A stretch of 64,000 nt of DNA from Clostridiales bacterium (GCA_031263155.1 JAISGK010000102.1:7028-71027), one strand, 5' to 3'; counted from the stretch's first letter, positions 6,464-33,924 are shown. Translations and numbers: made by a program. Notes: generated by a model from the letters alone, not told the origin.

Positions 6464-6570
6464 TTACGAAAATAACATCAAAAATAATATCAGCCGCTCT
6501 CGTTCGCCATCAAGCGCGTCAAGGGGGCTAACCAAGCAAAGCCTCAAACAGTAGGTGTTGGGGCTTTGTT
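6464..6570 (-). pseudogene. Decayed 3'-end fragment of a radical SAM/SPASM gene (fifth-paralogue remnant)
   Basis: The reverse strand reads ...QSPNTYCLRLCLVSPLDALDGERERLILFLMLFS*. The intact gene at 7498-8514 ends ...LPKCENCCAPDDCSSPLDVLDGERERLINLFS*. Over the 39 nt encoding PLD.LDGERERLI there are 6 differences. No start codon or upstream body is present. Confidence 0.55.
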
Positions 6571-6641: not shown

Positions 6642-6872
6642 TTACATTGACGCTATTTTGTTCGCCAGTTCTTCGTCCTGTTGCTTTTTCCATGCCAAGC
6701 GTTTTAGCATTTCTTCTTCCGTTACATAACGTACCCCTGCGGCTTCTCTTTCACGTTGTTTAGAATCAATGTATGCATCAAGTTTCCTGATGTCGCCACC
6801 GAAATCGGCGAGAAGTTCCTTACGGTTACGGCGTACTTCCGCAACGATCGGGTCGTAAAATGCGTTATTCAT
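6642..6872 (-). CDS. Small helical partner protein of the PIN toxin (putative antitoxin), 76 aa
   Basis: I place the start at ATG 6872 (MNNAFYDPIVAEVRRNRKELL...), which overlaps the PIN stop by 8 nt (tATGAATAA). The protein is charged and helical-looking, with no recognisable catalytic motif. Confidence 0.55.
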   Translation of the reverse strand: MNNAFYDPIVAEVRRNRKELLADFGGDIRKLDAYIDSKQREREAAGVRYVTEEEMLKRLAWKKQQDEELANKIASM

Positions 6873-7359
6873 AAGAACCCTCCTCATTATTTTTCTCAAT
6901 AAGGTCAAATGGCGTCAGCATCTCCGGCGTTGACAGTCCATGCTTATCATTGTGTTTTTGGGCGATTAACATGCTTCGAGTGCCTAAGTGCTTAAAGTTC
7001 CAACTGAGCAGGAAGTCTATGCCATAAATACAACATATAGCAAGATGCCGGGCGTCAATTGCGGAATCCTTTGGAATGGACAACAACTGCATATAAATCT
7101 CCGCGAGAGGCTCAATTTTGGGAGTTTTCTTTAAGGTCTCAATGCCATTTAGCCATTCCAAGCGTCTTTTTGCGGCGGCTTCGTCGCCCTTCTCACATTC
7201 TTCATAAACATAATCTGACACAAAGAGGTCATATTTATGCCGTAAAGATTCAAAGAACTCATGAGTTGCTGATTGCTTAATGGCAATGACAGGGTTGCTA
7301 CTGGTACGAGCCGCCAAATAGCTGGGGATTGTGGTTTCAAGGTATAAGCTAGGATTCAT
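6865..7359 (-). CDS. PIN-like domain protein (putative toxin), 164 aa
   Basis: Acidic residues fall at PIN-like spacing: LYLETTI (N-terminal), VYEECEKGD, DARHLAICC, LLSWNFKH. A GGAGTGGAGG RBS sits upstream of the ATG. Confidence 0.6.
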   Translation of the reverse strand: MNPSLYLETTIPSYLAARTSSNPVIAIKQSATHEFFESLRHKYDLFVSDYVYEECEKGDEAAAKRRLEWLNGIETLKKTPKIEPLAEIYMQLLSIPKDSAIDARHLAICCIYGIDFLLSWNFKHLGTRSMLIAQKHNDKHGLSTPEMLTPFDLIEKNNEEGSYE

Positions 7360-7497: not shown

Positions 7498-8514
7498 TCA
7501 CGAAAATAAGTTTATCAGTCGCTCGCGTTCACCGTCAAGCACATCAAGGGGACTTGAGCAGTCGTCGGGCGCACAGCAGTTTTCGCATTTGGGGAGAGAT
7601 TTGTAACCGTCTCGCAACTGGGCCAGCCTAAAATCGCGAAGTCTCTCGCCGTTCCAGATCTCGCGCAAGGTAGCGCCGTGAACATTGCCAAGGCTGCACG
7701 CCCTATAAATCGCGTCACAGGGTTGAATGTCGCCGTTGGGCCATATACACATCTGGTAGAACGGGAACGGACACACAAAACGCGGCGAGTGTTCGTTCCC
7801 GTATCTGTCGCGCAATACGGCGTTCTGCTGTACACCAACCGCGTGATACACGGGTTGCACATACTCAACTGACATACGGTCGCACTTGCCGTTAAGCAGT
7901 TTGTAGAATTCAGCCGCCGCGTTCGGGGTTACGCCAACCGGCGGCAGCGCGATGTCCATTATTTTTACAAACAGCCCCATTTCAGGCTTCTTATGCTGAT
8001 AAAAATATGCAAGGTGTTCAAGTAATGTGTCAAAGTCCAGCGCGATGCCGCAAATCCGGCGGTATGTTTCTTTGTCAAGCCCTTGCAGCGATACGCGCAG
8101 ATTGGTGAGTCCTGAATCAATCAGCGCGTCCGAGTATTCGCGCGTAAGCAAGCTCGCGTTGGTGATTATTTCTATACGTTTCGCAATCCCCGCGCTGGCC
8201 GCCATCTTAATCATTTGAGGCAGATCACGGTTTAACAATGGTTCGCCCTGCGACACAAACTGTAAGAGCTTATACGGCGCAAAGTTCGCGCTCTGCTCGA
8301 CGATTAACCTCATTGTGTCAAGGCTCATCATCTCACTCCCTACGCCATAAGTCTGAAACAATTCGCCATCGCTCAAGCTATGCGCGCAGTAACTGCACCG
8401 GAAATTACACGCGTTACTGGGAAATACATACAACGTAAACGGCGATGCCAGCGGCAAACTGCCTGCAAGCGGTACGCGATCAGCTTGCTCGGCGTTGGAT
8501 TTTAGCCGCGTCAT
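7498..8514 (-). CDS. Radical SAM/SPASM-type protein, paralogue D (338 aa)
   Basis: CxxxCxxC in PSNACNFRCSYCAHS; shared motifs GEPLLN, IITNASLLT, LRVSLQG; Cys-rich C-terminus CPFPFYQMCIWPNGDIQPCD...CENCCAPDDC. GGAGG RBS. Confidence 0.85.
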   Translation of the reverse strand: MTRLKSNAEQADRVPLAGSLPLASPFTLYVFPSNACNFRCSYCAHSLSDGELFQTYGVGSEMMSLDTMRLIVEQSANFAPYKLLQFVSQGEPLLNRDLPQMIKMAASAGIAKRIEIITNASLLTREYSDALIDSGLTNLRVSLQGLDKETYRRICGIALDFDTLLEHLAYFYQHKKPEMGLFVKIMDIALPPVGVTPNAAAEFYKLLNGKCDRMSVEYVQPVYHAVGVQQNAVLRDRYGNEHSPRFVCPFPFYQMCIWPNGDIQPCDAIYRACSLGNVHGATLREIWNGERLRDFRLAQLRDGYKSLPKCENCCAPDDCSSPLDVLDGERERLINLFS

Positions 8515-8640
8515 AAAAAACCTCCATTAAATCACGCAGTACAAAACGGTCTTGGCGGCGGTGTACCAGTAATGTCACAAATATGCCTTGTATTCCGAAA
8601 CAAATGATTTGGTTAGCTCTCCCGTAATCTTCTCCCCCAC

Positions 8641-9621
8641 TCACATAAACATTTTTGACAGTTGCTCCCGGTACTCGTCGAGAAAATCAACTTGCTGTGT
8701 GCCATAGTCCGGCGACTTGCAGTTTATGCATATCTTATTTGCGTCGCGCCCGGAGATTTGCGTCTTGAGAAACTCGCGGCGGCTATTGTCATTCCAGATT
8801 TCCAGCAAGCTGCCCTTTGTGATGTTTCCGAATACCGCAGGCGGTTCAATATAGCAACACCCGATTACGTTGCCGTTGGGCAGCACAACCGCTATGTAGA
8901 ACGGCATCGGGCACACATCAACCCGCCGCGCCTCGTCATCATTGTTTTTGGCGTATTTCAACTCGCTGCCCATAGCGCTGTGGTCGATTTGCTGAATGTT
9001 TGGAAATAAATGCTCCACTACTGCCGTGTCGCTGATGGGGTCGAACAGAGCGTGAAAATTCTCGACCGAAACATCAAGCGCGATGTCTATAATTTTGACA
9101 TACAAGTCCGTGCTGGCCTTGCGACGGTAGAAATACCGCAGGTTGTCAATGAACCCGTCAAAATTCAGCTTCACGCCGCAAACCTTCTCATAGGCTGACG
9201 CGCCGCAGCCTTGCAGTGATACGCGCATACGATCCAGCCCCGCGTCAATCAGGGCGTTTGACATCTCACGCGTCAACAGACTGCCGTTTGTTACTATTTC
9301 GACACGCTCTGCAGCGGTGCGTTCCTTGGCGTAACGCACCATATCGGCAATGCGCGGATGGGTCAGTGGCTCGCCGTGGCCGTCGAACATCAGCACCTTG
9401 GGCTTGACAGGCAGAGCGGCAACGTCGTCAACCGCTTTCGTGAACACCTCAAACGGCATTAACTGTTTTACGAATCCGATCTCTGCCTGTTCACTGGCAG
9501 TCATACTATGTACACAGTACGAACACTTAAAATTGCAGTAATACGACGCAAATATATGCACCGACAGAGGCGACGCAAGTGGGAGTTTTGTAATTAGCGG
9601 CACGCGCTTAGGTATTGCCAT
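8641..9621 (-). CDS. Radical SAM/SPASM-type protein, paralogue C (326 aa)
   Basis: ASYYCNFKCSYCVHS; GEPLTH, IVTNGSLLT, MRVSLQG; CPMPFYIAVVLPNGNVIGCC...CINC. The start overlaps the upstream stop by 1 nt. Confidence 0.85.
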   Translation of the reverse strand: MAIPKRVPLITKLPLASPLSVHIFASYYCNFKCSYCVHSMTASEQAEIGFVKQLMPFEVFTKAVDDVAALPVKPKVLMFDGHGEPLTHPRIADMVRYAKERTAAERVEIVTNGSLLTREMSNALIDAGLDRMRVSLQGCGASAYEKVCGVKLNFDGFIDNLRYFYRRKASTDLYVKIIDIALDVSVENFHALFDPISDTAVVEHLFPNIQQIDHSAMGSELKYAKNNDDEARRVDVCPMPFYIAVVLPNGNVIGCCYIEPPAVFGNITKGSLLEIWNDNSRREFLKTQISGRDANKICINCKSPDYGTQQVDFLDEYREQLSKMFM

Positions 9622-10637
9622 TAATTATTTACCTCATATCGTTTTAAAACACCAGCGGCGCAATCGTCTAAATGTTCTTCTTTCCAGTGAATTCCTACGT
9701 ATTTTGATACGCAATTCTTGCAATACGGCAAACTAGAAGCCTCAAACCGCAGCAGTTGTTTGCATAGCTCGCGCTGTTCGCCATTCCATATGTCAATGAG
9801 TCGTTTTTCATGAATGTTTCCCAATACTGGGTTAAAATAGTCGCAACAGGGTATAACATCACCTGTTACGGTTACATCCGTCATATAAAACGGTTGCGGG
9901 CAAACTTCAAACATGTCGGATTCTATACCGTACTGGCTGGATTTAGCTGATATTTCATCAGTATACTGCACTCCTTCTTTGCTAAACATTGGAACAGTAG
10001 GGCCAATAAACATATCATCGCACATTTCGCCGAACATATCATAAAACTTAGTATCTTCACCGGGTGCAAGCGCAACGTCGGCAATTTTTATGTGTACGCC
10101 CATATTGCCGCGATTCTCATATAAATATTTAATCTCGCCTACGAAGTTTGGAAAATCAATGTCCGCGCCGCAGATTTTGCGGTACGATTCTGCGTTTAAC
10201 CCTTGCAGAGAAATCATTATGCGGTCTGCTCCGCTTGAAATTAATTTTTCGCTCCTTTCGCGTGTAAGCAGTAACCCATTTGAGAAGAACGAAAGATATT
10301 CAATTTTCCCCGTCGCTTTCAACATATCGCAAATCTGCTCAAACTGCGGATGACACAGAGGTTCTCCCATACCGCAAATTCTACAACTTTTGAAAGAACA
10401 GGGGAAATCGCCAAGCTGCTCGCAAACGCACTCGACCGTTTCCATGCTGACTAGAGAATTGTGAAAGTGTGGGTTCGCTTTCTTTTTCTCTGGTGAAAGG
10501 CTGTGGAAGCAATACCTACACCGAATATTGCAAATGTGTGATACCTGCATAACAAAAGTATACGGCGTTGCCAATGGTACGACATCGCGAAGCCATTGAC
10601 GATTTGAGTCAACATTAGGTTGAACCTTGGCTGCCAT
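9621..10637 (-). CDS. Radical SAM/SPASM-type protein, paralogue B (338 aa)
   Basis: VSHICNIRCRYCFHS; GEPLCH, FFSNGLLLT, IMISLQG; CPQPFYMTDVTVTGDVIPCCDY...CKNC. A 2-nt gap follows paralogue A. Confidence 0.85.
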   Translation of the reverse strand: MAAKVQPNVDSNRQWLRDVVPLATPYTFVMQVSHICNIRCRYCFHSLSPEKKKANPHFHNSLVSMETVECVCEQLGDFPCSFKSCRICGMGEPLCHPQFEQICDMLKATGKIEYLSFFSNGLLLTRERSEKLISSGADRIMISLQGLNAESYRKICGADIDFPNFVGEIKYLYENRGNMGVHIKIADVALAPGEDTKFYDMFGEMCDDMFIGPTVPMFSKEGVQYTDEISAKSSQYGIESDMFEVCPQPFYMTDVTVTGDVIPCCDYFNPVLGNIHEKRLIDIWNGEQRELCKQLLRFEASSLPYCKNCVSKYVGIHWKEEHLDDCAAGVLKRYEVNN

Positions 10638-10639
10638 TA

Positions 10640-11650
10640 CTAAATAACCTCCAAACGCTTGATGATCTCACCAACGGAACCGTCTAAATTATCGGATGGC
10701 TGCTGATTATTAGGAACATAGCAATCAACACAATTGTAGTCATACTCACATCTTAGCTGGCGCAGGAGGACTTCTTTGCGCGCCTTGCCGTTCCAAATAT
10801 CGACCAACGATTGAGTATGAACATTGCCGATTGGGGGCTCATAAAAATTACAGCACGGCAACACGTCGCCACCCGGCCATACCGCGATGGTATAGAAACA
10901 ATTCGGACAGACACGGGTAGTCTTTAGGTCTTGCTGGTATTTGTTTTTGGAGCCGTCTTTGTCCTCCAAATAACTGTAGTCAACATCCTTAAACAGTGGG
11001 ACGATATGTTCCACATATATCTTGTCGCAAATGTCGCCGAACATTTCATAGAATTTTTGTTCGTTTCCATCAAGGGCAATATCAGCACATTTTATGTACA
11101 ACTTGGCGTTGCCTTTTATCGAACAGAAATATGCTATTCGTTCGATTATCTGCGTAAGATCTACGGTTGCTCCTGCTATGTCTTTGTATTTTTCCGCTGT
11201 TATTCCTTGCAAAGAAATCCGCAATTCGCTCAAGCCCGCATCTAACAATTCTTCAGAGAGCTTTTTTGTAAGCAATGTTCCGTTGGTAAAAAATTGGATT
11301 CTATCCGCGATACCCGCCTCGTTGATAAGTCTGACAATACGGGGCAAATCCGTGTGCAGAAGGGGTTCGCCAAAGCTGGTTAAGTTTATATCTTTTATCT
11401 TATCGGGAAACGATTGGCAATCAAATATCGCTTTTTCAACAGTTTCCAACGTCATATATGCGCCCCCCCAGCGCTGGATATACGACTTGTAATTTTCCGA
11501 GTGCTTCCAATAACTCTGAACGCAGTATTTACAAGACAAATTGCAAACAAGCGTTGGGCAAAAAAACATCGTTAACGGTGTTTGCAGCGGAATATTTTCC
11601 GCAAGGATCATTCTGTCTGTGCTGTAATAAGGATTATTTTCTGCCTTCAT
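10640..11650 (-). CDS. Radical SAM/SPASM-type protein, paralogue A (336 aa)
   Basis: PTLVCNLSCKYCVQS; GEPLLH, FFTNGTLLT, LRISLQG; CPNCFYTIAVWPGGDVLPCCNF...CVDC. A 2-nt gap follows the FkbM gene. Confidence 0.85.
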   Translation of the reverse strand: MKAENNPYYSTDRMILAENIPLQTPLTMFFCPTLVCNLSCKYCVQSYWKHSENYKSYIQRWGGAYMTLETVEKAIFDCQSFPDKIKDINLTSFGEPLLHTDLPRIVRLINEAGIADRIQFFTNGTLLTKKLSEELLDAGLSELRISLQGITAEKYKDIAGATVDLTQIIERIAYFCSIKGNAKLYIKCADIALDGNEQKFYEMFGDICDKIYVEHIVPLFKDVDYSYLEDKDGSKNKYQQDLKTTRVCPNCFYTIAVWPGGDVLPCCNFYEPPIGNVHTQSLVDIWNGKARKEVLLRQLRCEYDYNCVDCYVPNNQQPSDNLDGSVGEIIKRLEVI

Positions 11651-11652
11651 TC

Positions 11653-12795
11653 TCAGCGCCCTCCCACCGTAGCGTATAAGACGGTTTCAAACGTGTATTC
11701 ATAATGATTACGCAAATAAAACCTATACTGTGGCGTCAAGACGTGCAGCATGTTAGGGATTTCCCACAGATCCGACACATAATGATAGACGCAGATTGCA
11801 AGGTCGGGCGCGCCGCTCTTGATTAAACGCTCCGCCCCGCAAATGGCGGCAGCCTCGCTGCCCTCAATATCCATTTTTATAGTCAGGCCATCCGGGTTCT
11901 TGATAATATCGTCTAGTCTTACTGTCTGCAAAATACTCTTGCCATCTTCGGCAATTCGAGAGTTTCCGCTGCTGCGATCATCAAATTTAACAAAACCGCT
12001 CTCATCAGAAATGGCAAGTGGGAGACATAACGTGTCGATCTTATAGGACATGGCATTTTTAACCAACAGCGAATAACTTTCTAACGACGGCTCAAAGCCT
12101 ATATACCACTCACATTTTGTGCGGGACATCAGCTCGTTTAGCGTATCGCCATTATACGCGCCGCAATCAACGAAACGGCGATAGTTATTGGCAAAAGGCA
12201 CACTATTGTCAAAATACTGCGGAATATTGGCGTCAATAGCATCTCCATAATTGTGTTGGGTGTGGGCTTGTAAAATATTCGCGAATACCGACTTTGAGTG
12301 TTCATCTGACAACAGCATAAAAGCGTCGCATACTGCGTCTGCTGAATCGGAAATATACCGCATATCTTCACTGACGCGCGAAACCTGCACTGATGTAGTC
12401 ATTAGCGCGTAGGCGTTTAGCGTATTTTGATAGCCATAGCCCTTTATACGTTTTTCAAGGCTGTTATAATCGCTCTTGTTGAGCATAACAGCCACGATTA
12501 CAAGGGCTTTTTCTTTTATCGCGTCGCTCACCGTATCAGAGTCAGGCAGTACAATCGGGATATTAGCGTAATGCGTTTTGCCGCTGGGGTTTGCGTCAAG
12601 GAAGAACGCGACATCGTCTTGGCGGCCTAGGTTTGTCAGAATCGCCAAGGTTCGTTTTCCAAGATTCCCCGCGCCGTATATGATGATTTTCTTGTATGGA
12701 GATATGATAGCGCTGGCCGTATCGGCCGCGCTGGCTGCACTAGCGGTGTTGGCCGCTAGTTTCCTTATCGTTTCAACTGTTGGCAATGTTATCAT
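11653..12795 (-). CDS. FkbM-family methyltransferase with an N-terminal Rossmann-like domain
   Basis: The C-terminal half carries FVDCGAYNGDT...GFEPS...IKMDIEGSE (FkbM pattern). The N-terminal IIIYGAGNLGKR resembles NeuD/PglD-type N-domains. Confidence 0.75.
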   Translation of the reverse strand: MITLPTVETIRKLAANTASAASAADTASAIISPYKKIIIYGAGNLGKRTLAILTNLGRQDDVAFFLDANPSGKTHYANIPIVLPDSDTVSDAIKEKALVIVAVMLNKSDYNSLEKRIKGYGYQNTLNAYALMTTSVQVSRVSEDMRYISDSADAVCDAFMLLSDEHSKSVFANILQAHTQHNYGDAIDANIPQYFDNSVPFANNYRRFVDCGAYNGDTLNELMSRTKCEWYIGFEPSLESYSLLVKNAMSYKIDTLCLPLAISDESGFVKFDDRSSGNSRIAEDGKSILQTVRLDDIIKNPDGLTIKMDIEGSEAAAICGAERLIKSGAPDLAICVYHYVSDLWEIPNMLHVLTPQYRFYLRNHYEYTFETVLYATVGGR

Positions 12796-13820
12796 TTTGC
12801 CACCCTTTCAATTTCGGCGTTAAACCGCCGCAAATTTTCGACCGCGCTACAGTGCGATATAGCATATCGCCTTGCCGCCTGCCCCAGGCGCCGGCGCTCC
12901 GCTTCGCTGTCAAACAGGCGCCGAATCGCCGACGCATACTCTTGCGGGTTGTTCACTGTCAACCCTGTCGCCCCGTTTTGCACAATCCAACACCCGATGG
13001 GGCTTTGCGAGATCACAACAGGCAGCCCAACCGCCATCGCTTCCAGCGCGGAGTTGTCTATGCTCGCGGTCGTGTCGGGGCGCATAAGATAGCTAAATAC
13101 GTCAAACCGGCGCAAATTGTCATATACATTATTGCGCCAGCCAATGAACGTGAAATATCGCCCCATACCACGGCGGGCGATATCATTTTGTACACTGCCG
13201 TCATTCTCTCCTAGCATTGTAAAGTGACTATTGGGCACGGTGCCAAGGGCGGCATCGCAGTAATCAACAAAATTGCTTGGCAGGCGCTTATAGGTTGGCA
13301 TCCCTACATAGCCGATACTTAACGCGCCGCTTTTGAGAGAGTAGTCTGTTTTGCGCGTAAGCTCGCCGGGGTTAAAGTCGCCAAATCCGTAAACAGGGGC
13401 CGGATTTTTTGCGGCATAGCGCGAAATGCCAAGAGTCGCCGGTGTGGTCACAAGCAAGCGCTCGCATTTGTCAAGTACGTCATCGGGCATCAACTCTCCC
13501 GAGAAGCCATTGTTGTGATACCAGATCAACAGTGGTTTATTGATTGTAAGGCCGCGAATAAAATCATTCAGGAAAGCGCTGGCCCAATAACTTATTACCG
13601 CAATATCAGCCCACGCCAACGCGCCATCTATCGCTGATAAAGGCAGTACCGCAACGCCATTTGCCTTGCAGCGTTCTATGTGGTTGAGCTTGCGCGGCTC
13701 TTGCAACAGCAGTATGCGGTGGGAGTGCCCGCCCTCGCGGCTGCCGAGTATCGCCAACCCGCTAATCGCCTTACCCGCGCCGTCTCCCAAATGCGCGGCT
13801 ATGTGGAGAATATTGGCCAT
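12792..13820 (-). CDS. Glycosyltransferase family 1/4 (GT-B)
   Basis: The C-terminal NSALEAMAVGLPVVIS...GATGLTV...RRLGQAARRYA is the typical GT4 EX7E-region pattern. Confidence 0.85.
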   Translation of the reverse strand: MANILHIAAHLGDGAGKAISGLAILGSREGGHSHRILLLQEPRKLNHIERCKANGVAVLPLSAIDGALAWADIAVISYWASAFLNDFIRGLTINKPLLIWYHNNGFSGELMPDDVLDKCERLLVTTPATLGISRYAAKNPAPVYGFGDFNPGELTRKTDYSLKSGALSIGYVGMPTYKRLPSNFVDYCDAALGTVPNSHFTMLGENDGSVQNDIARRGMGRYFTFIGWRNNVYDNLRRFDVFSYLMRPDTTASIDNSALEAMAVGLPVVISQSPIGCWIVQNGATGLTVNNPQEYASAIRRLFDSEAERRRLGQAARRYAISHCSAVENLRRFNAEIERVAK

Positions 13821-14632
13821 TCGTCACACGCTTCCCCAACATTCTTTACAGCCTGCTCAAAGCCAAGCTGCGGCGAGTACCCCGTTTCGGCCGCCAGCGG
13901 CGCGATGTCAAACCACTCACGCTGAAAGCGCAGGCCATCGTCGGGGCGCGCGCCGATGTTCACCTTGTCGCTTACACCTAATATATGCGGCAGTTGCGTC
14001 AAATAATCGCGCAAAACGCGAGGCTGTCCCGAACCAATAAAATATTCGCGTTTGCTCAGTCTATATTCTCCCGCAAGTCTAAGCCCCAAGGCCAAATCTT
14101 CAACGGCGACCACATCGTACCACGTCTTTGCCAAACCGAACGCTGGCGACACGCCTTTGAGCAAGTTTGAAACGGCATAGGCCATCATCTGCTCCGGCTT
14201 TATGCCGCGCCCTATAGGGTGGCATACCGTACACCAAACGAAGTCTATGCCCAATTGCCTCGCCAACCTGTCTGCCATGGCGTGGGAATAACGCTTTGAC
14301 AGTATGTAAAAATCAGAAATGCCCACTGCGTCCGGCAACGGCAGAAACTCGTAAACGGTACCCAACGACACAAATTTTTGACAGCCGACTTTGTATGCCG
14401 CTCTCAGGGTTTCAAGGGTCAGCGCCGCGTTGCCCGCTTGCAAAACGGCGTCGCCCCGCCCCGGCCCGGACGCGCTCTCCCACGCCAAGTGATAGCATAC
14501 GTCGGCGGGAGTGGCTGGAAGTTCTCCGCGCTTAAGCGGGGTAACAATCACGCCGCGCGCCGCAATTTCAGCGGTCAAGTGCCGCCCAACAAACCCCGTC
14601 GCACCGGTAACGATTGCGTTTTTCATTTTCAT
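13799..14632 (-). CDS. NAD-dependent epimerase/dehydratase-family SDR (probable 4-ketoreductase)
   Basis: Rossmann motif VTGATGFVG and catalytic YxxxK (YILSK). It overlaps the GT4 start by 22 nt. Confidence 0.8.
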   Translation of the reverse strand: MKMKNAIVTGATGFVGRHLTAEIAARGVIVTPLKRGELPATPADVCYHLAWESASGPGRGDAVLQAGNAALTLETLRAAYKVGCQKFVSLGTVYEFLPLPDAVGISDFYILSKRYSHAMADRLARQLGIDFVWCTVCHPIGRGIKPEQMMAYAVSNLLKGVSPAFGLAKTWYDVVAVEDLALGLRLAGEYRLSKREYFIGSGQPRVLRDYLTQLPHILGVSDKVNIGARPDDGLRFQREWFDIAPLAAETGYSPQLGFEQAVKNVGEACDEWPIFST

Positions 14633-14673: not shown

Positions 14674-15189
14674 TTACCAACTTTTATCCTTCTCGCTCAC
14701 AACCCTAATCTCGCCTGGCCACTGTATACCAAAAGCAGGGTCGTCGTAACGGTATCCGCGCTCGCTGCCCGGTTGATAAAAGCACGTCACAAAGTATTGC
14801 ACCCAGGCGTCGTCGGTTAGCGTCAGATAGCCGTGGGCAAAGCCCTTTGGCACATACAGCGCGTTCCCCGCCGCCGCCGAAAGCTCCGCGCCCGCCCACT
14901 GCCCGAATGATTCGAAATTTTGGCGAACATCAACAGCCACGTCAAACACCGCGCCGCGAACACAAGTAACAAACTTGTCTTCGGCAAACTCTCCCCTTTG
15001 GCAGTGCAGACCGCGCAACGTGCCTTTGAGTATGTTTGTTGACAGGTTTACCTGAACTATATCACCGCACAGCCCCGCCGCCTCAAGCTCGCGCTTGCAA
15101 AACATTCTGGCGAATATGCCGCGCTCATCCTCAAAAGGTTCCAGCGTGATGATGTGCACTCCGTCCAGTCTGGTTTTTTCAAATTTCAT
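14674..15189 (-). CDS. RmlC-like sugar-nucleotide 3,5-epimerase (cupin)
   Basis: 171 aa: ...FEDERGIF...LRGLHCQ...VFDVAVDVR...YVPKGFAHGY..., the dTDP-4-dehydrorhamnose 3,5-epimerase family pattern. Confidence 0.85.
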   Translation of the reverse strand: MKFEKTRLDGVHIITLEPFEDERGIFARMFCKRELEAAGLCGDIVQVNLSTNILKGTLRGLHCQRGEFAEDKFVTCVRGAVFDVAVDVRQNFESFGQWAGAELSAAAGNALYVPKGFAHGYLTLTDDAWVQYFVTCFYQPGSERGYRYDDPAFGIQWPGEIRVVSEKDKSW

Positions 15190-15192: not shown

Positions 15193-16710
15193 TTACCCTT
15201 TCGACACGCTAAACATGTAATCTTTGATCGTCAGATTTTGCAAATTCTGATTATTGTAGTTTGGATTGACCTTGCCAAGCCAACTTTTTATTATGGCCAA
15301 GTCGTCCTGCGACAACCTATATGATTCGCCGCCAATGCTAATATTTTTTCCGCCGAACAGCTTCAACGCTTTGCTAACCTCGTCTATGGACATAACCGCC
15401 GGGCAATCCTCGTCATTTGCGCCGCCAAACCCCGCCACCCGCATCAGCGCATTGTAGTCGCTCGTATTCCGCAGTTTAAACAGCAAAATACCACCGCGTT
15501 TTGCAAAGTTGTACAGACTTTGCAATAACGTTATTGGCGCGGAGTGATAACAGTTCAGCGGCTCGCACAGGGCGACAATGTCAAATGTCTCATCCGCGTA
15601 GTGGTTCTGAATGAAGTCCACTCGATCGCATTTGACCTCCGCCTCTGTTGTCTGCAAGTCGAGGAAGTATTTTGCCCGCGTGGTAAACGCCCAATTGCTT
15701 ACGTCCAACCTGCCGCGCCGGCGAAGGCGATTGCGAATCTCCAAAACGGGCGTGCCACAGCGCGCGTCAACGCACAGCGCGCTTATCTCGCCCTGCGGCA
15801 TATCCCAGGTGCCAAGGGGCGCGAGTAATTGTAATTCGTAATTATTAATATCGTCCCACGGGTCAATCCCGTGATATTTTTCGCGGTACAGACGCCGGCC
15901 GCTTTCTAAACTCGCCCGAAACGCCGCCGGGTCTTTGTCTTCCATATGGTCTAGATCGTGGTCGTGGCATACCCAGGTGTCTTTGCACAACATCAGTTTG
16001 TATCCCATACGGCGCAGACGGGCGGTCAGGTCGTCCTCGCTGAAATCGTGAACAAACGCAAAATCTCCAATTCCAACGCTGTCAAGCACTTGTCTGCTAA
16101 AAATACTCAATATGCTTATCAGCCGCATACGCTCCTCCCACTTGGAGGGATCGCTGATATTAAATGACGCGGCCTTACCCTGCATCTCGTCAAAATCTTT
16201 CCAGCCGCCCAAATCATACTGTTGTAAATTGCTTATATTACTTGATAAGGGCTCTACAAAACCTATGCGCGGGTCCGACTCAAAACACCGCAGCAGATTA
16301 GACAGCCAATTGGCAGTAACGTAAACGTCGTTTGATACGCCGACGAGGTATTTGCCGCTGTACACCTTGCGTATCGCCCCGAAAGAAAAGCCGCCGCCTA
16401 TATTTTTGCTTACCTTGATAATCCGCTTTTTGGGATGCTCCACCGACTGAAAATACTCGAACGTTCCGTCGCTTGAGCCGTTATCTATAAGTATCAGCTC
16501 ATAATCAATATCTGTTGTATATTTTAAAACGCACTCCACTGCGTACTTGGTCTTATGCAAGCGATTGTATCCCGTTATGAAAATACTGCACAGCGGCGCG
16601 CTGGGCACGTCATACTGCGAATAGGCCAGCAAGCGGTTGCCCCATAGTGTCCCATCTGCCGACACGGCAGTCTTATCGTCCGTATTTAGAAAAATTACGT
16701 CATTATCCAT
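15193..16710 (-). CDS. Family 2 glycosyltransferase fused to a C-terminal methyltransferase-like domain
   Basis: The N-terminal part is GT2-like (SIFITGYNR...LILIDNGSSDGT...). The C-terminal ~200 aa look Rossmann/SAM-MT-like (…LCVDARCGTPVLE…FDIVALCEPL…GGILLF). Confidence 0.75.
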   Translation of the reverse strand: MDNDVIFLNTDDKTAVSADGTLWGNRLLAYSQYDVPSAPLCSIFITGYNRLHKTKYAVECVLKYTTDIDYELILIDNGSSDGTFEYFQSVEHPKKRIIKVSKNIGGGFSFGAIRKVYSGKYLVGVSNDVYVTANWLSNLLRCFESDPRIGFVEPLSSNISNLQQYDLGGWKDFDEMQGKAASFNISDPSKWEERMRLISILSIFSRQVLDSVGIGDFAFVHDFSEDDLTARLRRMGYKLMLCKDTWVCHDHDLDHMEDKDPAAFRASLESGRRLYREKYHGIDPWDDINNYELQLLAPLGTWDMPQGEISALCVDARCGTPVLEIRNRLRRRGRLDVSNWAFTTRAKYFLDLQTTEAEVKCDRVDFIQNHYADETFDIVALCEPLNCYHSAPITLLQSLYNFAKRGGILLFKLRNTSDYNALMRVAGFGGANDEDCPAVMSIDEVSKALKLFGGKNISIGGESYRLSQDDLAIIKSWLGKVNPNYNNQNLQNLTIKDYMFSVSKG

Positions 16711-17770
16711 CTAAAGTATACTCCTCAATCTGCCGTATCATTACAGCGATTGCATCGCTGACAGCGTTTGTGTCGACGCTGTCATAAAACGCCCTGTACC
16801 ACTGTGCCGATAGTCTGACGGCTTCCGCAATGCCGTAGCGCGGTCTCCAGCCCAGGGCGGTCTTTATCTTGCCGCAGTTTAAGCTAAGCAGCCTTGCCTC
16901 GTAGGGTTGTTCGGCGCGCGCATGCTCCCAGGCCGCGCCATCGCCCCAGGCGTTGCAGAATATAGCGGCAAGCTCTCCATTATTGGCGGCGGAGTCCGGC
17001 CCGATATTATACGCTCCGGCGAGTGAAAGATCGGAGTACTGTTTTTCGGCAATCAGCAGATAGGCCGTGAGGGTGTCAAGCACAAATTGATACGGACGCG
17101 CCGATACCGGATTGCGTATGTTGATTAGCTTTTTTGCCGCCGCCGCTTTAGCGCAGTCAGGGATGATACGATTCGCGGCGAAGTCGCCGCCCCCTATTAC
17201 ATTGCCCGACCGAGCTGTTGATACCGCTATGTGTTTAGCGTGACAAAACGAGTTAACATAACTTGAGGTGACCATCTCAGAACACGATTTGCTGTTGCTA
17301 TAGGGGTCGCAGCCGTTCAGATAATCACCCTCGCGGTAATCCTCGCCGTTCTCGCGGTCCAGATATACCTTGTCTGTAGTGATATTGACAAACGACTTAA
17401 CGCAATCGGCATTGCGGATACACTCAAGAATATTTACTGTGCCCATCACGTTGGTTTCATACGTGTAACGCGGTCTTTGATAACTGTCTAACACCAGCGG
17501 TTGCGCCGCTAGGTGAAAAACTATCTCTGGCTTCGTTGCGTCAAACGCGTTTTGCAGTTTGTCAATATCCCGAATATCACCAATATGAGATTCCATTTTC
17601 GCGTCCAAGCCGCAAAGGTCCCAAAGGTTGGGCGCTGTGTTTGGGGCAAGGGCGTAACCGGCTATTTTTGCCCCAAACGTAAGCAACAACTCGCACAGCC
17701 ATGAGCCTTTAAACCCTGTGTGCCCCGTTATAAACACACGACGGCCACGCCAAAATTCAGCATTTATCAA
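16703..17770 (-). CDS. rfbG: CDP-glucose 4,6-dehydratase
   Basis: 355 aa with FWRGRRVFITGHTGFKGSWL and DPYSNSKSCSE (YxxxK). Overall length and pattern match RfbG. Confidence 0.88.
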   Translation of the reverse strand: MINAEFWRGRRVFITGHTGFKGSWLCELLLTFGAKIAGYALAPNTAPNLWDLCGLDAKMESHIGDIRDIDKLQNAFDATKPEIVFHLAAQPLVLDSYQRPRYTYETNVMGTVNILECIRNADCVKSFVNITTDKVYLDRENGEDYREGDYLNGCDPYSNSKSCSEMVTSSYVNSFCHAKHIAVSTARSGNVIGGGDFAANRIIPDCAKAAAAKKLINIRNPVSARPYQFVLDTLTAYLLIAEKQYSDLSLAGAYNIGPDSAANNGELAAIFCNAWGDGAAWEHARAEQPYEARLLSLNCGKIKTALGWRPRYGIAEAVRLSAQWYRAFYDSVDTNAVSDAIAVMIRQIEEYTLDG

Positions 17771-18777
17771 GTAATCCCCCCACTATACCATTGTGCGAAA
17801 TGGCGGCTCACAATCTCCGCGCCACTGTAGTTCAGGTGGGCGTCGTCGCGGAAGTTATCGTTTGTGAACAGCCCCTCATCACGATTTAGCGCGTTATAGT
17901 CCAGGTATGGTATTTGCCGTTGAGTTGCGAATTCTTTAACCACGCGATTAATATCATCGTAATTGGATATGAGGTTCATTGACACGGGGGCTATCGGGGC
18001 AGTCACAAAGATTAAATCGACGCCTTTATTTTCGCACAGTTTCCATATTTTATCCAAATATCCCAACTGCACCGGCGAAAATTCAAACGCCGCCCCATCC
18101 AGCCGGGCAAATTGATTGGTTTTATCATATTCATCAGGCAGCATGTTATAGTCGCACCACATAAAGCCGCGATAATCATAACGTTCCGTGCCTTGTTGAC
18201 TGCCAAACTCCCTCTCCCAACCATATCGTTCTAAAAAATTCAGCAGTTTCGTGTTATAATACGTTAAAAAATCCAGTTGATAGCGAATCAACCCAAACCT
18301 GTATTTTATCTTCTCGTTCCATGGAAATATCTCATCTATATACGCTCGGCGCAGACTGTCGTCATCGAACGCGGTGAGAAGCGTATCGGCCTGCTTTACG
18401 TCAAAGTCTTGCCCCAGCACTCCCCAATACACATCCACAACGACCGTGTTTGGACGCTGCGTTTTTAGCGCCTCTACAAGCGTAAAATAGGTAGAGTCCG
18501 CATACTGCAACGGCATGCCAAAGTTGAAACTCTCCGTATTTAGCATGTCGTCTATCAATTCGGGCGCGAATGTACAGTATACGTGCGAAGAGCCAAGAAA
18601 GAGCATGTTTAGCGTATTGTCAGGCAACGAGCGGAAATCTGACACGCGCTGTCTGTTCCACGTGTTAATGTGGTTTTGTGTGGACGAATAGGTGTATTCA
18701 TTGCGTAGGAATAGATATGCGGGTATCACGATGCCGACAAGCGCCAGCACTTTTAGAACGTAGCTTAATATTCTCAT
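17767..18777 (-). CDS. Membrane-anchored SGNH/AlgX-AlgJ/DltD-like O-acyltransferase partner
   Basis: N-terminal TM helix and a C-terminal RDDAHLNYSGAEIV (D-x-H motif of AlgJ/AlgX/PatB-type proteins). It lies immediately downstream of the MBOAT gene. Confidence 0.6.
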   Translation of the reverse strand: MRILSYVLKVLALVGIVIPAYLFLRNEYTYSSTQNHINTWNRQRVSDFRSLPDNTLNMLFLGSSHVYCTFAPELIDDMLNTESFNFGMPLQYADSTYFTLVEALKTQRPNTVVVDVYWGVLGQDFDVKQADTLLTAFDDDSLRRAYIDEIFPWNEKIKYRFGLIRYQLDFLTYYNTKLLNFLERYGWEREFGSQQGTERYDYRGFMWCDYNMLPDEYDKTNQFARLDGAAFEFSPVQLGYLDKIWKLCENKGVDLIFVTAPIAPVSMNLISNYDDINRVVKEFATQRQIPYLDYNALNRDEGLFTNDNFRDDAHLNYSGAEIVSRHFAQWYSGGIT

Positions 18778-18821
18778 ATGCGCCTCAAGTCTTTCAAGTC
18801 TCTAAACGTGCGTTTAGACCT

Positions 18822-20264
18822 CTAAAATTGAAAATAAATAAAATCCCCGGCTGAATAAAACTTTGCCAGAGCCATTATCATTATCAAAAGAACAGAGTAT
18901 ACAACCACTCTTATTAGCGAGGGCATTTTACCCACGCGCGCTATAAAATCCGTTTGCCAGGCAATCAAATCAATCGCCGCGATCGCCGCGCACAACATGA
19001 TATTTATAAGTATGTCCAGCAGATTTGAAGACATCGACGAAAGTACATCCAACACATACCGCCAGTCGCCCCATCGCGCCGAATCGCTGGTAAGGTGTGT
19101 GAGAATGAGTATGGCGTCGGAAACGTTATTGGCGCGAAAGAAGATCCATGTAACACAAACCAGCACAAAGGTTATGGCAATGGCTAAAGGCGTTAAAACT
19201 TTCGGCACATGGCGCGTTTTTGCGAATAGCGCGTCCTCCGCTACCTGCAACGCGCCGTGCATCCCGCCCCACACAACAAATGTCCAGTTCGCGCCATGCC
19301 ACAGGCCACTTGCCAAAAAGGTAATCATTATATTGGCGTATCGCTTCACCCTGCTCACCCGCCCGCCCCCCAGCGGGATATATATATAGTCTCTTAGCCA
19401 CGACGATAAAGTGATGTGCCATCTGCGCCAAAACTCACGAATACCCGCGCTAAGGTAGGGCTGGCGGAAATTTTGCGTAAGGTCAACGCCCAGCAGCTTG
19501 GCGCTGCCTATGGCAATGTCCGAATATCCCGAAAAGTCGCAATATATCTGTACGGCAAAAAAAAGCGTCGCGACCACATACGCCAAGCCGGTAAAGGAGT
19601 CCGGGCGGTTGTAAACGGCGTTAACGCAATCGGCGAGCCTGTCGGCGACAACAGCCTTTTTAAAAAAGCCCAGCAGCAGAAATTTAGCGCCCGCGCCAAG
19701 ATTATCCAGGCGCGGTTTTATACTATGGTCCAATAACTGATCCATCAGCTTGTCGGCGCGCTCTATGGGCCCCGCAACCAACTGAGGAAAAAACATGATA
19801 AACAGCAGCACATTGATAAAACTTATCTGCGCCGCGTACTTTTCGCGGTAGACATCTATAGTGTACGCGGCGGCTTGGAATGTGTAAAACGATATGCCCA
19901 TGGGCAAGAGAATATCAAACGCCGGGCGGGAGATCTCCGCCCCTGCCCATCGCGCCACGGCGACAATAGAATCGGTAAAAAAACCAAAATATTTGAATAT
20001 GAACAGAAGCGCGAAATTTATTGCCATACAGACGGCGAGAACAAGTTTGCGGCGATGGTTTGCCGCTAACAAACGCGCCGCGACATAATTAACCCCCACA
20101 GTCGCGACTATCAGCAACACGAGTTCCGCCCGCCACGCCATATAAAACGCCAAGCTCGCGCACAGCAGGGTGTACCTGCGAATCTTGGGCAGTATATAGT
20201 ATATCAGCGCCACTACAGGCAGAAATATAAGGTATGTTAATGAATTAAAGACCATTTGCGCCAC
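18822..20264 (-). CDS. MBOAT-family membrane O-acyltransferase (AlgI/DltB/PatA-like)
   Basis: 480 aa, polytopic. WRRWHITLSSWLRDYIYIPLGG and ASGLWHGA contain the conserved MBOAT histidine. Confidence 0.9.
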   Translation of the reverse strand: MAQMVFNSLTYLIFLPVVALIYYILPKIRRYTLLCASLAFYMAWRAELVLLIVATVGVNYVAARLLAANHRRKLVLAVCMAINFALLFIFKYFGFFTDSIVAVARWAGAEISRPAFDILLPMGISFYTFQAAAYTIDVYREKYAAQISFINVLLFIMFFPQLVAGPIERADKLMDQLLDHSIKPRLDNLGAGAKFLLLGFFKKAVVADRLADCVNAVYNRPDSFTGLAYVVATLFFAVQIYCDFSGYSDIAIGSAKLLGVDLTQNFRQPYLSAGIREFWRRWHITLSSWLRDYIYIPLGGGRVSRVKRYANIMITFLASGLWHGANWTFVVWGGMHGALQVAEDALFAKTRHVPKVLTPLAIAITFVLVCVTWIFFRANNVSDAILILTHLTSDSARWGDWRYVLDVLSSMSSNLLDILINIMLCAAIAAIDLIAWQTDFIARVGKMPSLIRVVVYSVLLIMIMALAKFYSAGDFIYFQF

Positions 20265-20297
20265 CTGTTCCCGCGTCTTGTGTCTCGCTTCGGTGTT

Positions 20298-21509
20298 TTA
20301 TGATTTCTTGCTGTGCCGCGAGATATTTAGCAGCACTCCTACCAAAAACAATGTTACCATCAAAGATGTGCCGCCATAACTTATAAAGGGTAACGGCACT
20401 CCTGTATTAGGCATGCTGTTTGTCACCACTGCCACGTTTAACACAACCTGCGCGGATATAAGAATCATTATGCCCGCAGCCACAAGGCTGCCAAACATGT
20501 CTGTCGCGTTCATGGCTATCTTAAGCCCGCGCCATATAAGTACGCCGAACAGCGCCAGAACCAGCGCGCCGCCGATAAACCCCAATTCTTCACAGATGAT
20601 AGAAAAAATAATGTCATTGTGCGCTTCGGGCACGAAGGTTTTTTGTCTGCTGTTGCCAACGCCCAGTCCAAACATTCCGCCCGACGCTATAGCGTACAGC
20701 GACTGGATTACTTGAAAACCGTCTCCCGTTGGGTCACTAAACGGATTAATCCACGCCTCAATACGGCCAATGCGAAAGTTCTCGGCGGACGACATTGCCG
20801 TGTACAAAAAATAGCCAGCCAGCCCTGCCACGCCCCCTGCTATAACCACCACAAAACGCATTACATACGGGCACGCGATAAATATGACGCCCATTCCCAC
20901 CAGCGTTACCACTATAGCCATGCTTAAGCTGTTTCCCAGCATAACCAGCCCGGCGGTCACTCCAACCACAGCGCACGCCAGTATAAACGTGGGCCATTTA
21001 AGCAGCATCTTGGGGTTTTGCGAAATGAGAAACGACATATAAAATATAACCCCCGCCTTGGCCATCTCAGACGGTTGAAACTGACCGATAATCGGAACGG
21101 GTATCCATCGCTGCGCTCCATGCGACGATATGCCTATTAGGGCCGCTACAACCAACAGCGCGTTGGCTGCCAGGTATATAATAAAAGCCATGCTGCGAAA
21201 ATATCTGTACGATATATTCATTGTAACCAACATAACGGCGGTTCCCGACAAAAAAAATAATCCCTGGCGCTTTAAATAATAGTACGCGTCATTTTGGCTG
21301 GCCGCAGCCGTCATGTATGACGACGTGAAAACCATTACAACGCCGATAACACAAAGCATAAGCACGATTATAAGGAGTGTGTAGTCTGGAGCGCCCACAC
21401 GAACGATCTCGCCCCGCCCTTTGATCTCCTGCTTGTTTAAAAACTGCGGGCGTAAAACCCTTGCCCCCTCCATTGAAACTCTCCCTCCATTTGAAGCTCT
21501 ACTCTTCAT
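20298..21509 (-). CDS. ftsW: SEDS-family peptidoglycan polymerase FtsW/SpoVE
   Basis: Polytopic FtsW/RodA family pattern (…GAQRWI…QPSE.AK…PEAHNDIIFS…). It sits after murD in the dcw block. The exact start is uncertain. Confidence 0.88.
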   Translation of the reverse strand: MKSRASNGGRVSMEGARVLRPQFLNKQEIKGRGEIVRVGAPDYTLLIIVLMLCVIGVVMVFTSSYMTAAASQNDAYYYLKRQGLFFLSGTAVMLVTMNISYRYFRSMAFIIYLAANALLVVAALIGISSHGAQRWIPVPIIGQFQPSEMAKAGVIFYMSFLISQNPKMLLKWPTFILACAVVGVTAGLVMLGNSLSMAIVVTLVGMGVIFIACPYVMRFVVVIAGGVAGLAGYFLYTAMSSAENFRIGRIEAWINPFSDPTGDGFQVIQSLYAIASGGMFGLGVGNSRQKTFVPEAHNDIIFSIICEELGFIGGALVLALFGVLIWRGLKIAMNATDMFGSLVAAGIMILISAQVVLNVAVVTNSMPNTGVPLPFISYGGTSLMVTLFLVGVLLNISRHSKKS

Positions 21510-21538
21510 TAACGACTACGACACGCGGATTTTGAAAT

Positions 21539-22906: not shown

Positions 22907-22916
22907 ACGCTATAAA

Positions 22917-23885
22917 TCACACCACCCCAAGGTACCCTATGAGGCAAAGAATGGCGGTTACCACATAAAACAATGACACGATCTTGGTTTCTGTCCAACC
23001 TGAAAGCTCAAATGTATGATGAATGGGGGCCATTTTAAAAAATCGCCTGTGCGTTAGTTTAAAATATCCTACCTGGATGATGACCGAAAGCACTTCCACA
23101 AGATATACCAACGCAACTATGAGTATAAACAGGGGCATACCCAGCAACAACGATATTGCCGCCACAAATCCGCCCAACGCCAGCGAGCCCGTATCGCCCA
23201 TAAATATTTTGGCGGGGTGCGAGTTAAACAGAAGAAAACCCAGCAAACTGCCCGCCGCCGCGCCGGCCAGCGGCATTACTGCACTATTAAACGCCCATGC
23301 GGCAAACAGAAAGAAAGCCACTATAAGCACGGTAACGCCCGATGCCAATCCATCCAGCCCGTCGGTAAAGTTAGCACCATTAACAGTCCCCAAAATCACC
23401 AGAAACGCCAGTGGAATATACCACACATCCAAATCAGCGTTTTTCAAAAAAGGAACATATACCTCTGTCAGCCCCAGCGCGCCAGGTTGACGCATGCATA
23501 ATAGATAATAGACAAACGCGGCGGTTATGACCATCTGCCCCAGCATTTTTTGCCAGGCGCGCAAACCCAGGGAGCGTTTTTTTACCACCTTTATATAGTC
23601 GTCCGCAAAGCCTACCAAGCCAAACCCGATTGTCACAAGCAGCAGTACCGTGCCGTCCGGGTTGTTTTTTACAAAAAACACAGCTGAGGCTACAAACGCG
23701 ATTATTATAATTATGCCGCCCATGGTGGGCGTACCTGCTTTTTTAAGGTGCGACTTTGGCCCATCGTCACGTTCGTATGAGCCGAATTTTAGCTTCATCA
23801 GATAAGGTATCAGCGCGGGGCACAGTATAACACTGACAATGAACGCGCCCAGCGCGGCATATACCGCAAGTGTAAAGTCTTGCAT
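22917..23885 (-). CDS. mraY: Phospho-N-acetylmuramoyl-pentapeptide transferase
   Basis: KxGTPTMGG, NxTDGLDGL and HHxFE motifs (GTPTMGGIIII, NFTDGLDGLA, PIHHTFEL). Confidence 0.95.
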   Translation of the reverse strand: MQDFTLAVYAALGAFIVSVILCPALIPYLMKLKFGSYERDDGPKSHLKKAGTPTMGGIIIIIAFVASAVFFVKNNPDGTVLLLVTIGFGLVGFADDYIKVVKKRSLGLRAWQKMLGQMVITAAFVYYLLCMRQPGALGLTEVYVPFLKNADLDVWYIPLAFLVILGTVNGANFTDGLDGLASGVTVLIVAFFLFAAWAFNSAVMPLAGAAAGSLLGFLLFNSHPAKIFMGDTGSLALGGFVAAISLLLGMPLFILIVALVYLVEVLSVIIQVGYFKLTHRRFFKMAPIHHTFELSGWTETKIVSLFYVVTAILCLIGYLGVV

Positions 23886-33917: not shown

Positions 33918-33924
33918 AGGTGTA

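Follow-up and report, generated by a model that had tools for sequence, protein, structure and literature searches.

Four tandem BtrN-like radical SAM enzymes in a glycan cassette of a Clostridiales bacterium, and their proposed role in sugar tailoring

Closest described systems

Radical S-adenosylmethionine (SAM) enzymes that act on carbohydrates are, to our knowledge, few (BtrN, DesII, BlsE, AprD4, SpeY, and a handful of epimerases), and almost all of them come from antibiotic pathways. Here, we describe four consecutive radical SAM genes, R1 to R4, that lie beside sugar genes in a 64,000-nucleotide (nt) stretch of DNA from a Clostridiales bacterium (GCA_031263155.1, JAISGK010000102.1:7028-71027; the whole stretch is called the window, and positions are counted from its first letter). 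A preliminary description of this DNA had read them as sugar-tailoring enzymes, and that reading is supported by synteny in 31 related loci and by fusions to sugar enzymes, the chemistry itself being predicted. We take R1–R4 to be putative sugar-tailoring radical enzymes, acting by dehydrogenation or epimerisation, in a cytoplasmic, often flagellin-directed, and horizontally mobile glycosylation cassette, and we give this reading a rough probability of 0.55.

BtrN, the 2-deoxy-scyllo-inosamine dehydrogenase of butirosin biosynthesis, is the founding twitch radical SAM enzyme and has a carbohydrate substrate. It is the best fold match to R1–R4, with which it shares the radical SAM core and a C-terminal one-cluster domain whose four auxiliary cysteines all align. 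The identity is about 20%, and R1–R4 are 75–90 residues longer, with a conserved N-terminal R-x2-L-x4-P-L-x2-P motif. BtrN stands single in an aminoglycoside cluster, whereas the R1–R4 family occurs in obligate sets of three to four paralogues in a protein- or surface-glycan cassette; clades A and B of the family, unlike BtrN, have an extra conserved cysteine. DesII, which is dTDP-4-amino-4,6-dideoxyglucose deaminase/dehydrogenase, and BlsE act on nucleotide-linked 6-deoxy or uronic sugars and are likewise top fold matches to a model of R3, but their profile match is confined to the N-terminal radical SAM core (residues 25-207 for DesII, 84-151 for BlsE), and they differ in size and pathway context.

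The SPASM maturases (anSME, PqqE, AlbA/SkfB, SuiB, CteB, and MftC) share with R1–R4 the Pfam SPASM match and the pattern CX9-15GX4C...CX2C. R1–R4 lack the CX5CX3C...C half, and hence the second auxiliary cluster, as well as a recognition domain, a precursor peptide, and a nearby sulfatase.

Flagellin glycosylation islands have been described in Campylobacter, Helicobacter, Clostridium, Pseudomonas, and C. difficile (types A and B), and they use nonulosonic acids, rhamnose, viosamine, or N-acetylglucosamine-phospho-threonine. Eight of our 31 related loci abut flagellar genes and likewise include glycosyltransferases with tetratricopeptide repeats (TPR), and some loci hold NeuB and a CMP-sugar synthetase. 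In contrast, no radical SAM enzyme is mentioned in the flagellin-glycan papers searched, and the window has no flagellar gene. With the cytidine diphosphate (CDP)-3,6-dideoxyhexose pathway (rfb/ddh/asc) of Salmonella and Yersinia O-antigens, the window shares RfbG, an RmlC/AscE-like epimerase, and a reductase, and many relatives also have RfbF and RfbH, which the window lacks. The O-antigen polymerase, flippase, and ligase are absent from the window cluster and from the Pfam-annotated loci, and the pathway has no counterpart of the radical SAM, FkbM, or B12-binding radical SAM genes. What sets the cassette apart from both systems is its obligate set of radical SAM paralogues. By analogy, the family probably works like BtrN, DesII, and the carbohydrate epimerases while belonging to none of those families.

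Four paralogous twitch radical SAM enzymes

The four genes are as follows (lengths in amino acids, aa).

R1, 10640-11650, minus strand: 336 aa; PF04055 and PF13186; CNLSCKYC; four auxiliary cysteines; rare lineage E1
R2, 9621-10637, minus strand: 338 aa; PF04055 and PF13186; CNIRCRYC; rare lineage E2
R3, 8641-9621, minus strand: 326 aa; CNFKCSYC; clade A, the clade usually coupled to FkbM
R4, 7498-8514, minus strand: 338 aa; CNFRCSYC; clade B

The four open reading frames (ORFs) are, as had been reported, same-strand paralogues of 326-338 aa, with pairwise identities of 31-37% and E-values of 3e-45 to 3e-65 between copies (tblastn); judged from these alignments, the paralogy is far beyond chance. 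The operonic packing also stands: 2 nt separate the FkbM-family methyltransferase gene from R1 and another 2 nt R1 from R2, R2 and R3 overlap by 1 nt, and a 126-nt spacer follows R3, with R4 having its own GGAGG ribosome-binding site 3' of it. Rfam matched no structured RNA anywhere in the window, this spacer included. The CxxxCxxC motif, the GEPL, TNG/A-x-LLT, and SLQG blocks, and the C-terminal cysteine pattern are present in all four proteins, as first noted, with CxxxCxxC and GEPL invariant.

The public gene call for R3 (P0001) is 287 aa long, or 88% of the ORF, and its implied start lies 3' of CxxxCxxC. The conserved form is the 326-aa ORF, with its 1-nt overlap with the R2 stop codon, and the public call is truncated; the database annotation is thereby corrected at this point, as it is in the domain type (twitch rather than SPASM).

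R1–R4 are members of the radical SAM superfamily, having CxxxCxxC and a SAM-binding core above the Pfam gathering threshold: they score 55-66 bits with PF04055 (Radical_SAM; cut-off 29.5) and 39-49 bits with PF13186 (SPASM; cut-off 21.5). In a cysteine census of 72 family members gathered from the related loci, seven cysteines are conserved, three of the SAM cluster and four auxiliary; CxxxCxxC is kept in 71 of the 72 and the auxiliary four in all of them.

Conservation at the C-terminus of R1–R4 is limited to CX12-17...GX4C and CX2C, with neither a conserved CX5CX3C nor a terminal cysteine. Since the second half of the seven-cysteine SPASM motif is absent, the proteins are of the twitch type and not SPASM enzymes with two auxiliary clusters. 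The Cys-rich SPASM/twitch-type C-terminus of the preliminary description is therefore borne out in its twitch form, and a full SPASM domain is rejected on the census (four auxiliary cysteines, not seven). The Pfam SPASM model also covers twitch domains, hence its match here. When the C-terminal 99 residues of R3 were compared with the PDB, BtrN was the sole sequence match, and the four auxiliary cysteines align one-to-one with BtrN Cys 169, 187, 232, and 235 (chain numbering), which we take to be the ligands of its single auxiliary cluster. By this C...GxxxxC...CxxC correspondence, R1–R4 are assigned to the BtrN-like twitch subclass; all four copies have the two-cluster twitch architecture (one SAM cluster, one auxiliary) and intact SAM-binding motifs.

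A profile of the four proteins matched the PDB in two parts, the N-terminal core with MoaA (6e-20) and the C-terminal domain with BtrN (2e-18). In the fold search with the AlphaFold2 model of R3 (pLDDT 92, pTM 0.91; 47-sequence alignment), BtrN came first (2e-13), then DesII, MoaA, and BlsE, all of which work on sugars or nucleotides; after them, at 1e-10 to 1e-8, came the peptide maturases SuiB, CteB, SkfB, anSME, and EpeE. Clade A has an invariant extra cysteine ('CC') directly after the second auxiliary ligand, present in R3 as C256, and 85% of clade B members have one after the fourth auxiliary cysteine, where R4 reads CxxCC.

No characterised family claims R1–R4, and every NCBIfam model scores far below its cut-off. 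The best is TIGR04317 (71-88 bits, cut-off 380), and the others of interest are PqqE (36-52, cut-off 381), DesII (TIGR04426; 33-43, cut-off 450), BlsE (TIGR04466; 33, cut-off 400), and anSME (TIGR03942; 33.8, cut-off 349), no sulfatase being present in the window cluster. Models for sactipeptide and ranthipeptide maturases are far below threshold, and AprD4 is not among the best 25 NCBIfam matches listed for any of the four. Known families were also rejected as the identity of R1–R4 on the PDB sequence matches, which are MoaA over the generic core and BtrN over the twitch domain only. The findings named beforehand as fatal to a sugar-tailoring reading (close homologues in a characterised family, such as anSME beside sulfatases; consistent company of a precursor peptide and an exporter; unconserved cluster cysteines) were not encountered.

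The glycan cassette of the window

Upstream of R1 on the same strand, the window holds the following cassette genes.

11653-12795, minus strand: FkbM-family methyltransferase with a PglD_N/NeuD-like N-terminal domain (PF05050; TIGR01444 at 49 bits, cut-off 38; PglD_N at 26.3 bits, cut-off 23.4)
12792-13820, minus strand: GT4 glycosyltransferase (PF13692 and PF00534)
13799-14632, minus strand: short-chain dehydrogenase/reductase (SDR; PF01370), with homologues in related loci
14674-15189, minus strand: RmlC-type 3,5-epimerase (cupin; TIGR01221 at 169 bits, cut-off 156; PF00908, E = 9e-59)
15193-16710, minus strand: GT2 glycosyltransferase, 505 aa (PF00535 over residues 42-151)
16703-17770, minus strand: CDP-glucose 4,6-dehydratase, RfbG (TIGR02622 at 405 bits, cut-off 278)

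Two more genes lie further upstream, and their membership of the cassette is uncertain; their proteins were not found in the related loci.

17767-18777, minus strand: SGNH/DUF1574-like protein (weak PF07611/PF13472), overlapping rfbG by 4 nt
18822-20264, minus strand: MBOAT acyltransferase (PF03062; DltB-like, 170 bits against a cut-off of 375)

The N-terminal domain of PglD holds the nucleotide of the sugar donor. The SDR is probably the sugar 4-ketoreductase. The CDP-6-deoxyhexose set of the window thus comprises a dehydratase and an RmlC-type epimerase above their equivalog cut-offs and an SDR, with the cytidylyltransferase missing; RfbH and the B12-binding radical SAM enzyme are absent from the window too. 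The upstream genes first listed are all present, save that the GT2-methyltransferase fusion is not established: the GT2 domain alone passes, and methyltransferase matches in the C-terminal part are sub-threshold (E = 0.02-0.07). Orthologues of this GT2, 502-513 aa long, occur in L004, L005, L015, L021, L077, L079, and L082.

Related loci

A scan of one genome per species yielded 24 loci with full-length relatives at 32-42% identity. Its sources were Bacillota including Selenomonas, Synergistales, Desulfobacterota, Fibrobacter, Scalindua and other Planctomycetota, Bacteroides and Prevotellaceae, Competibacteraceae, and a betaproteobacterium. Loci from Desulfitobacterium hafniense DCB-2, Intestinimonas, Magnetovirga frankeli, and four metagenomic contigs came in through exact-protein look-ups, which brought the set to 31 loci from at least eight phyla; protein clustering and the small-ORF comparison were performed on 27 of them. 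An exhaustive profile search gave the size of the family as 1,063 cluster representatives (50% identity) at E <= 1e-30, spread over Bacillota, Synergistota, Desulfobacterota, Fibrobacterota, Planctomycetota, Bacteroidota, and Proteobacteria.

Three to four tandem radical SAM copies are the rule in these loci, and the array is not peculiar to this DNA. The preliminary description knew of no such system, and a description of the family was found neither among the curated models nor in the papers searched. A survey of Clostridia for tandem copies next to FkbM, GT, and rfbG genes had been proposed; a neighbourhood of this kind, with FkbM, GT4, GT2, RmlC-like, and CDP-glucose genes beside the tandem copies, recurs in the 31 loci well outside that class. 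Homologues of the window FkbM (often two to three copies), GT4, 505-aa GT2, RmlC, SDR, and CDP-glucose dehydratase are all represented. FkbM is found in 19 of the 27 clustered loci, usually directly beside clade A or A', and GT4 also in 19/27, usually adjoining clade C. The RmlC-type epimerase is present in at least 16 related loci, a glucose-1-phosphate cytidylyltransferase in 19, and RfbH in 11 (692 bits, cut-off 423). At least 13 loci hold a B12-binding radical SAM enzyme, and some a CmcI-type methyltransferase.

Three gene fusions were found.

P0173, 775 aa: GT4-radical SAM fusion, the radical SAM domain being A'-type
P0206, 585 aa: FkbM-radical SAM fusion
L003:4027-5931, 634 aa: SDR-radical SAM fusion

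These fusions tie the radical SAM family to sugar enzymes. Some related loci (among L007, L008, L012, L014, L018, L077, L082, and L084) hold components that the window does not, namely, a radical SAM protein of 380-450 aa whose N-terminal domain is NeuD/PglD-like (C2185-like_N), and a 719-748-aa protein without a Pfam match.

Genes for flagellin, FliD, FliS, FliT, or MotAB lie within 10 kb of the cassette in 8 of the 31 loci (L004, L005, L011, L021, L077, L079, L082, and L085), which thereby have the character of flagellin glycosylation islands; the window does not. In D. hafniense DCB-2, whose cassette spans CP001336 4,407,078-4,428,112, the flagellin adjoining the cassette (L077, 13951-16905) is unusually long at 984 aa. 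Among 119 neighbouring ORFs outside the cassette, the commonest families are GT2, epimerases, NeuB, GT61, TPR, and CTP_transf_3, and Wzx, Wzy, ABC-2, and phosphoglycosyl-transferase are not among the 25 most frequent; nor do these four occur in seven Pfam-annotated related loci. The lack of a flippase, polymerase, or exporter, together with the frequent flagellin neighbours, points to decoration of a protein in the cytoplasm, most often flagellin. At the level of the family, these neighbours agree with protein glycosylation in the cytoplasm as known for flagellin, an agreement that the window by itself cannot confirm.

Clades, gene order, and the origin of R1 and R2

Clades A/A', B, C, and D were assigned using a neighbour-joining tree and clade hidden Markov models (HMMs). 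R3 scores 478 bits with the clade-A HMM (other clades, <= 329), and R4 scores 449 bits with that of clade B (others, <= 291). R1 belongs to no major clade, its scores of 270-324 bits giving no clear winner, and R2 likewise stands outside clades A-D. Just five close orthologues of R1 (47-54% identity) were found in 5.8 billion proteins. R1/R2-type orthologues occur in L084 and L085, both with four copies, and the R2 orthologue of L084 (12938-13969) scores 409 bits.

With M for FkbM, 4 for GT4, and K for the B12 radical SAM enzyme, the recurrent gene orders are M-A-C-B, C-M-A-B, and 4-C-B-A'(-D)-M, and the E-type orders are M-E1-K-E2-B-A' (L084), E1-E1-M-B-A' (L085), and M-E1-E2-A-B (the window, with 4 upstream of M). 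A (or A') and B both occur wherever a locus has three copies or more. If we define a multi-radical-SAM glycan cassette as A plus B plus either C or E1/E2 beside FkbM and GT4, the window holds one, with E1 and E2 (R1 and R2) in place of clade C.

The GC content is 0.426 in R1 and 0.428 in R2 compared with about 0.52 in R3 and R4; at third codon positions, it is 0.43-0.49 in R1-R2 (R2 0.428), 0.61-0.63 in R3-R4, and 0.51-0.63 in the other cluster genes. Because of this low GC, the rare lineage, and the fact that FkbM directly abuts clade A in most loci, the R1-R2 pair suggests a later horizontal insertion between FkbM and the clade-A gene R3.

Proposed function and alternative explanations

The domain make-up, conserved cysteines, synteny, fusions, clade structure, and fixed orthologous sets are observed; what the enzymes act on, which reaction they carry out, and which protein is decorated we infer. 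R1–R4 would each carry two [4Fe-4S] clusters, one that cleaves SAM and an auxiliary one on four cysteines, and would form the tailoring core of a conserved, mobile glycosylation cassette. This cassette would make a CDP-linked 6-deoxy-L-hexose, and the RfbH of many relatives points to a 3,6-dideoxyhexose. It would also supply a GT4, a GT2, and FkbM methyltransferases (one to three), often joined by a B12-dependent radical SAM enzyme, around a fixed radical SAM set of clade A (usually by FkbM), clade B, and either clade C (usually by GT4) or E1 with E2.

Reductive cleavage of SAM would give the 5'-deoxyadenosyl radical, which would take a hydrogen from a specific carbinol carbon of the sugar, either on the CDP-sugar or after transfer. 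Two outcomes can be envisaged: the auxiliary cluster may accept an electron to leave a keto-sugar, as in BtrN, or a hydrogen may be returned to the opposite face to leave an epimer, for which the extra clade-specific cysteines of A and B are candidate donors. FkbM may then methylate the products, the SDR may reduce them, or both may act. That each paralogue has a role of its own, as had been suggested, would fit with A, B, C, D, and E being old orthologous clades.

Several observations weigh against this proposal. R3 has a TM-score with BtrN of 0.55-0.72 at the identity of ~20%, values from which a reaction type is not transferable. The GT4 and SDR fusions imply different substrate levels, the glycan and the nucleotide sugar, and a 3,6-dideoxyhexose offers too few positions for three to four radical steps plus methylations, so that some of the enzymes must act on other residues. 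In the 64-kb window, phmmer with flagellin, FliD, FliS, FliT, FlaG, and MotAB queries found no flagellar gene, and the cytidylyltransferase gene rfbF was not found either, though a glucose-1-phosphate cytidylyltransferase gene may lie elsewhere in the genome; a search for flagellin and rfbF beyond the window ends (about 0.5 kb more on the left, and the right end) gave nothing useful. The window cassette is attached to the dcw cell-wall cluster and translationally coupled to the SGNH gene after MBOAT; for this organism, the MBOAT/SGNH pair is a hint of a polymer outside the cytoplasm. Finally, no biochemical or genetic work on any family member was found in the full-text literature.

The same cassette and carbohydrate substrates could instead serve other radical chemistry, such as diol dehydration or deoxygenation (AprD4-like), C-C bond formation or C-branching, ring contraction, an ether or acetal bridge from an FkbM-installed O-methyl group, or C-methylation with FkbM; jointly, we hold these to be possible although rather unlikely. 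The tight pairing of FkbM with clade A and the FkbM-radical SAM fusion suggest coupled chemistry, a B12-dependent radical SAM enzyme, up to three FkbM, and a CmcI methyltransferase accompany the set, the SDR fusion recalls the logic of the dehydratase-reductase pair AprD4/AprD3, and three to four obligate paralogues exceed the apparent need of a simple epimerisation scheme. On the other side, the only sequence-level relative of the auxiliary domain is a dehydrogenase, BtrN, a fully Cys-ligated auxiliary cluster fits electron transfer, AprD4 is not among the best 25 matches listed, and DesII scores far below its cut-off.

A second alternative is that R1–R4 are SPASM-type maturases modifying a peptide or protein, either a glycosylated protein such as flagellin or an unrecognised precursor of a RiPP (a ribosomally synthesised peptide that is modified after translation). 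The PF13186 matches, a weak likeness to the PqqE, sactipeptide, and ranthipeptide maturase models, the maturases in the fold search, and the flagellin genes adjacent in several loci are in its favour, but we consider it improbable. The four auxiliary cysteines make one cluster, compared with two in SPASM maturases, and the mere 28-35 residues before CxxxCxxC leave no room for an N-terminal RiPP recognition element (RRE). When ORFs of 25-95 aa outside larger genes were clustered across the 27 loci, no family was conserved and one chance pair appeared, and the Pfam-annotated loci have no peptidase or exporter, in line with the earlier remark that no RiPP system lies nearby. The fusion partners are GT4, FkbM, and SDR rather than peptide-binding domains, and the cassette is also found with no flagellar gene within 10 kb, as in the window.

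Cofactor or metalloenzyme maturation (MoaA-like, tungsten-cofactor maturase-like, or heme-related) in a coincidental glycan locus is highly implausible: TIGR04317, a tungsten-cofactor maturase model, and MoaA (55-67 bits) are the best partial NCBIfam matches, and MoaA is the top PDB sequence match for the N-terminal half, but these scores lie four to five times under the cut-offs and cover the generic radical SAM core only, the sugar-gene synteny is kept in 31 loci across phyla, and no molybdopterin, tungsten, or heme genes are conserved beside the family.

Returning to sugar tailoring, we offer one extension only tentatively: the set of three to four twitch enzymes with FkbM, and often a B12 radical SAM enzyme, might build a sugar modification so far unseen in the glycans of bacterial proteins; a CDP-derived deoxyhexose glycan could, for example, receive several radical epimerisations, C-branches, or ether/acetal bridges.

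Significance

The family amounts to some 1,000 clusters at 50% identity, occurring in fixed paralogue sets in a glycosylation cassette, and the window is one member of the rarer E-type rather than a unique oddity. In the full-text literature, from which most subscription journals are outside coverage, no paper was found that connects flagellin glycosylation, FkbM, or CDP-glucose glycan clusters with radical SAM enzymes. If the proposed function is correct, there is unexplored radical sugar chemistry on the flagella or other surface proteins of anaerobes, with gut and oral genera (Intestinimonas, Selenomonas, Prevotellaceae, and Bacteroides) among the carriers. Should the modification prove new to bacterial protein glycans, it would represent a new type of glycosylation in anaerobes, phylogenetically broad and directed at flagellin or surface proteins. 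Culturable carriers for determining the glycan structure include Desulfitobacterium hafniense DCB-2, Sporanaerobium hydrogeniformans, Desulfopila sp. IMCC35008, and Magnetovirga frankeli.

Borders of the cassette and the rest of the window

Three features lie downstream of R4.

6865-7359, minus strand: weakly PIN-like gene, 164 aa (E = 0.027)
6642-6872, minus strand: 76-aa ORF overlapping the PIN-like gene
6488-6529, minus strand: remnant of the 3' end of an R4-type gene (tblastn, 13 of 14 aa identical to R4 residues 321-334)

The remnant has 93% protein identity to the R4 C-terminus, with about 45 nt similar in the DNA alignment, and lies about 1 kb downstream of R4, the PIN-like gene and the 76-aa ORF being between the two. 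Together, these have the look of an insertion of the toxin-antitoxin type, or of a scar left by recombination, where the cassette ends. An originally five-fold array had been suggested; a tblastn search of the whole window with R1–R4 gave just this 14-aa remnant, and a fifth paralogue was dropped. Two 919-aa ORFs in the window were considered as a possible repeat and are unrelated to each other.

On the other side, pbp-murE-murF-mraY-murD-ftsW runs on into MBOAT, the SGNH-like gene, and the glycan cassette (17767-28816, minus strand), with no other large same-strand ORF between. A second, separate glycan cluster at 57736-63910 (minus strand) has genes for a HAD phosphatase, an HMGL-like enzyme, and a CTP_transf_3 cytidylyltransferase, and one for a 1145-aa protein whose match to Capsule_synth (PF05159) is weak; this protein also matches the 719-aa cassette protein of D. 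hafniense that has no Pfam match (2e-30). Beyond the right end of the window (L087) are an ABC-2 transporter and two GT2 genes, unrelated to the cassette.

The region from about 30000 to 43600 is a replication-origin region with spoVT, dnaA (34146-35465), dnaN, recF, gyrB, and gyrA, so the window is chromosomal. Cumulative GC skew reaches its minimum near 30 kb, and the DNA at 32-38 kb is AT-rich (GC 0.40-0.42). The presence of spoVT, with the assignment to Clostridiales, suggests a spore-forming member of the Clostridia.

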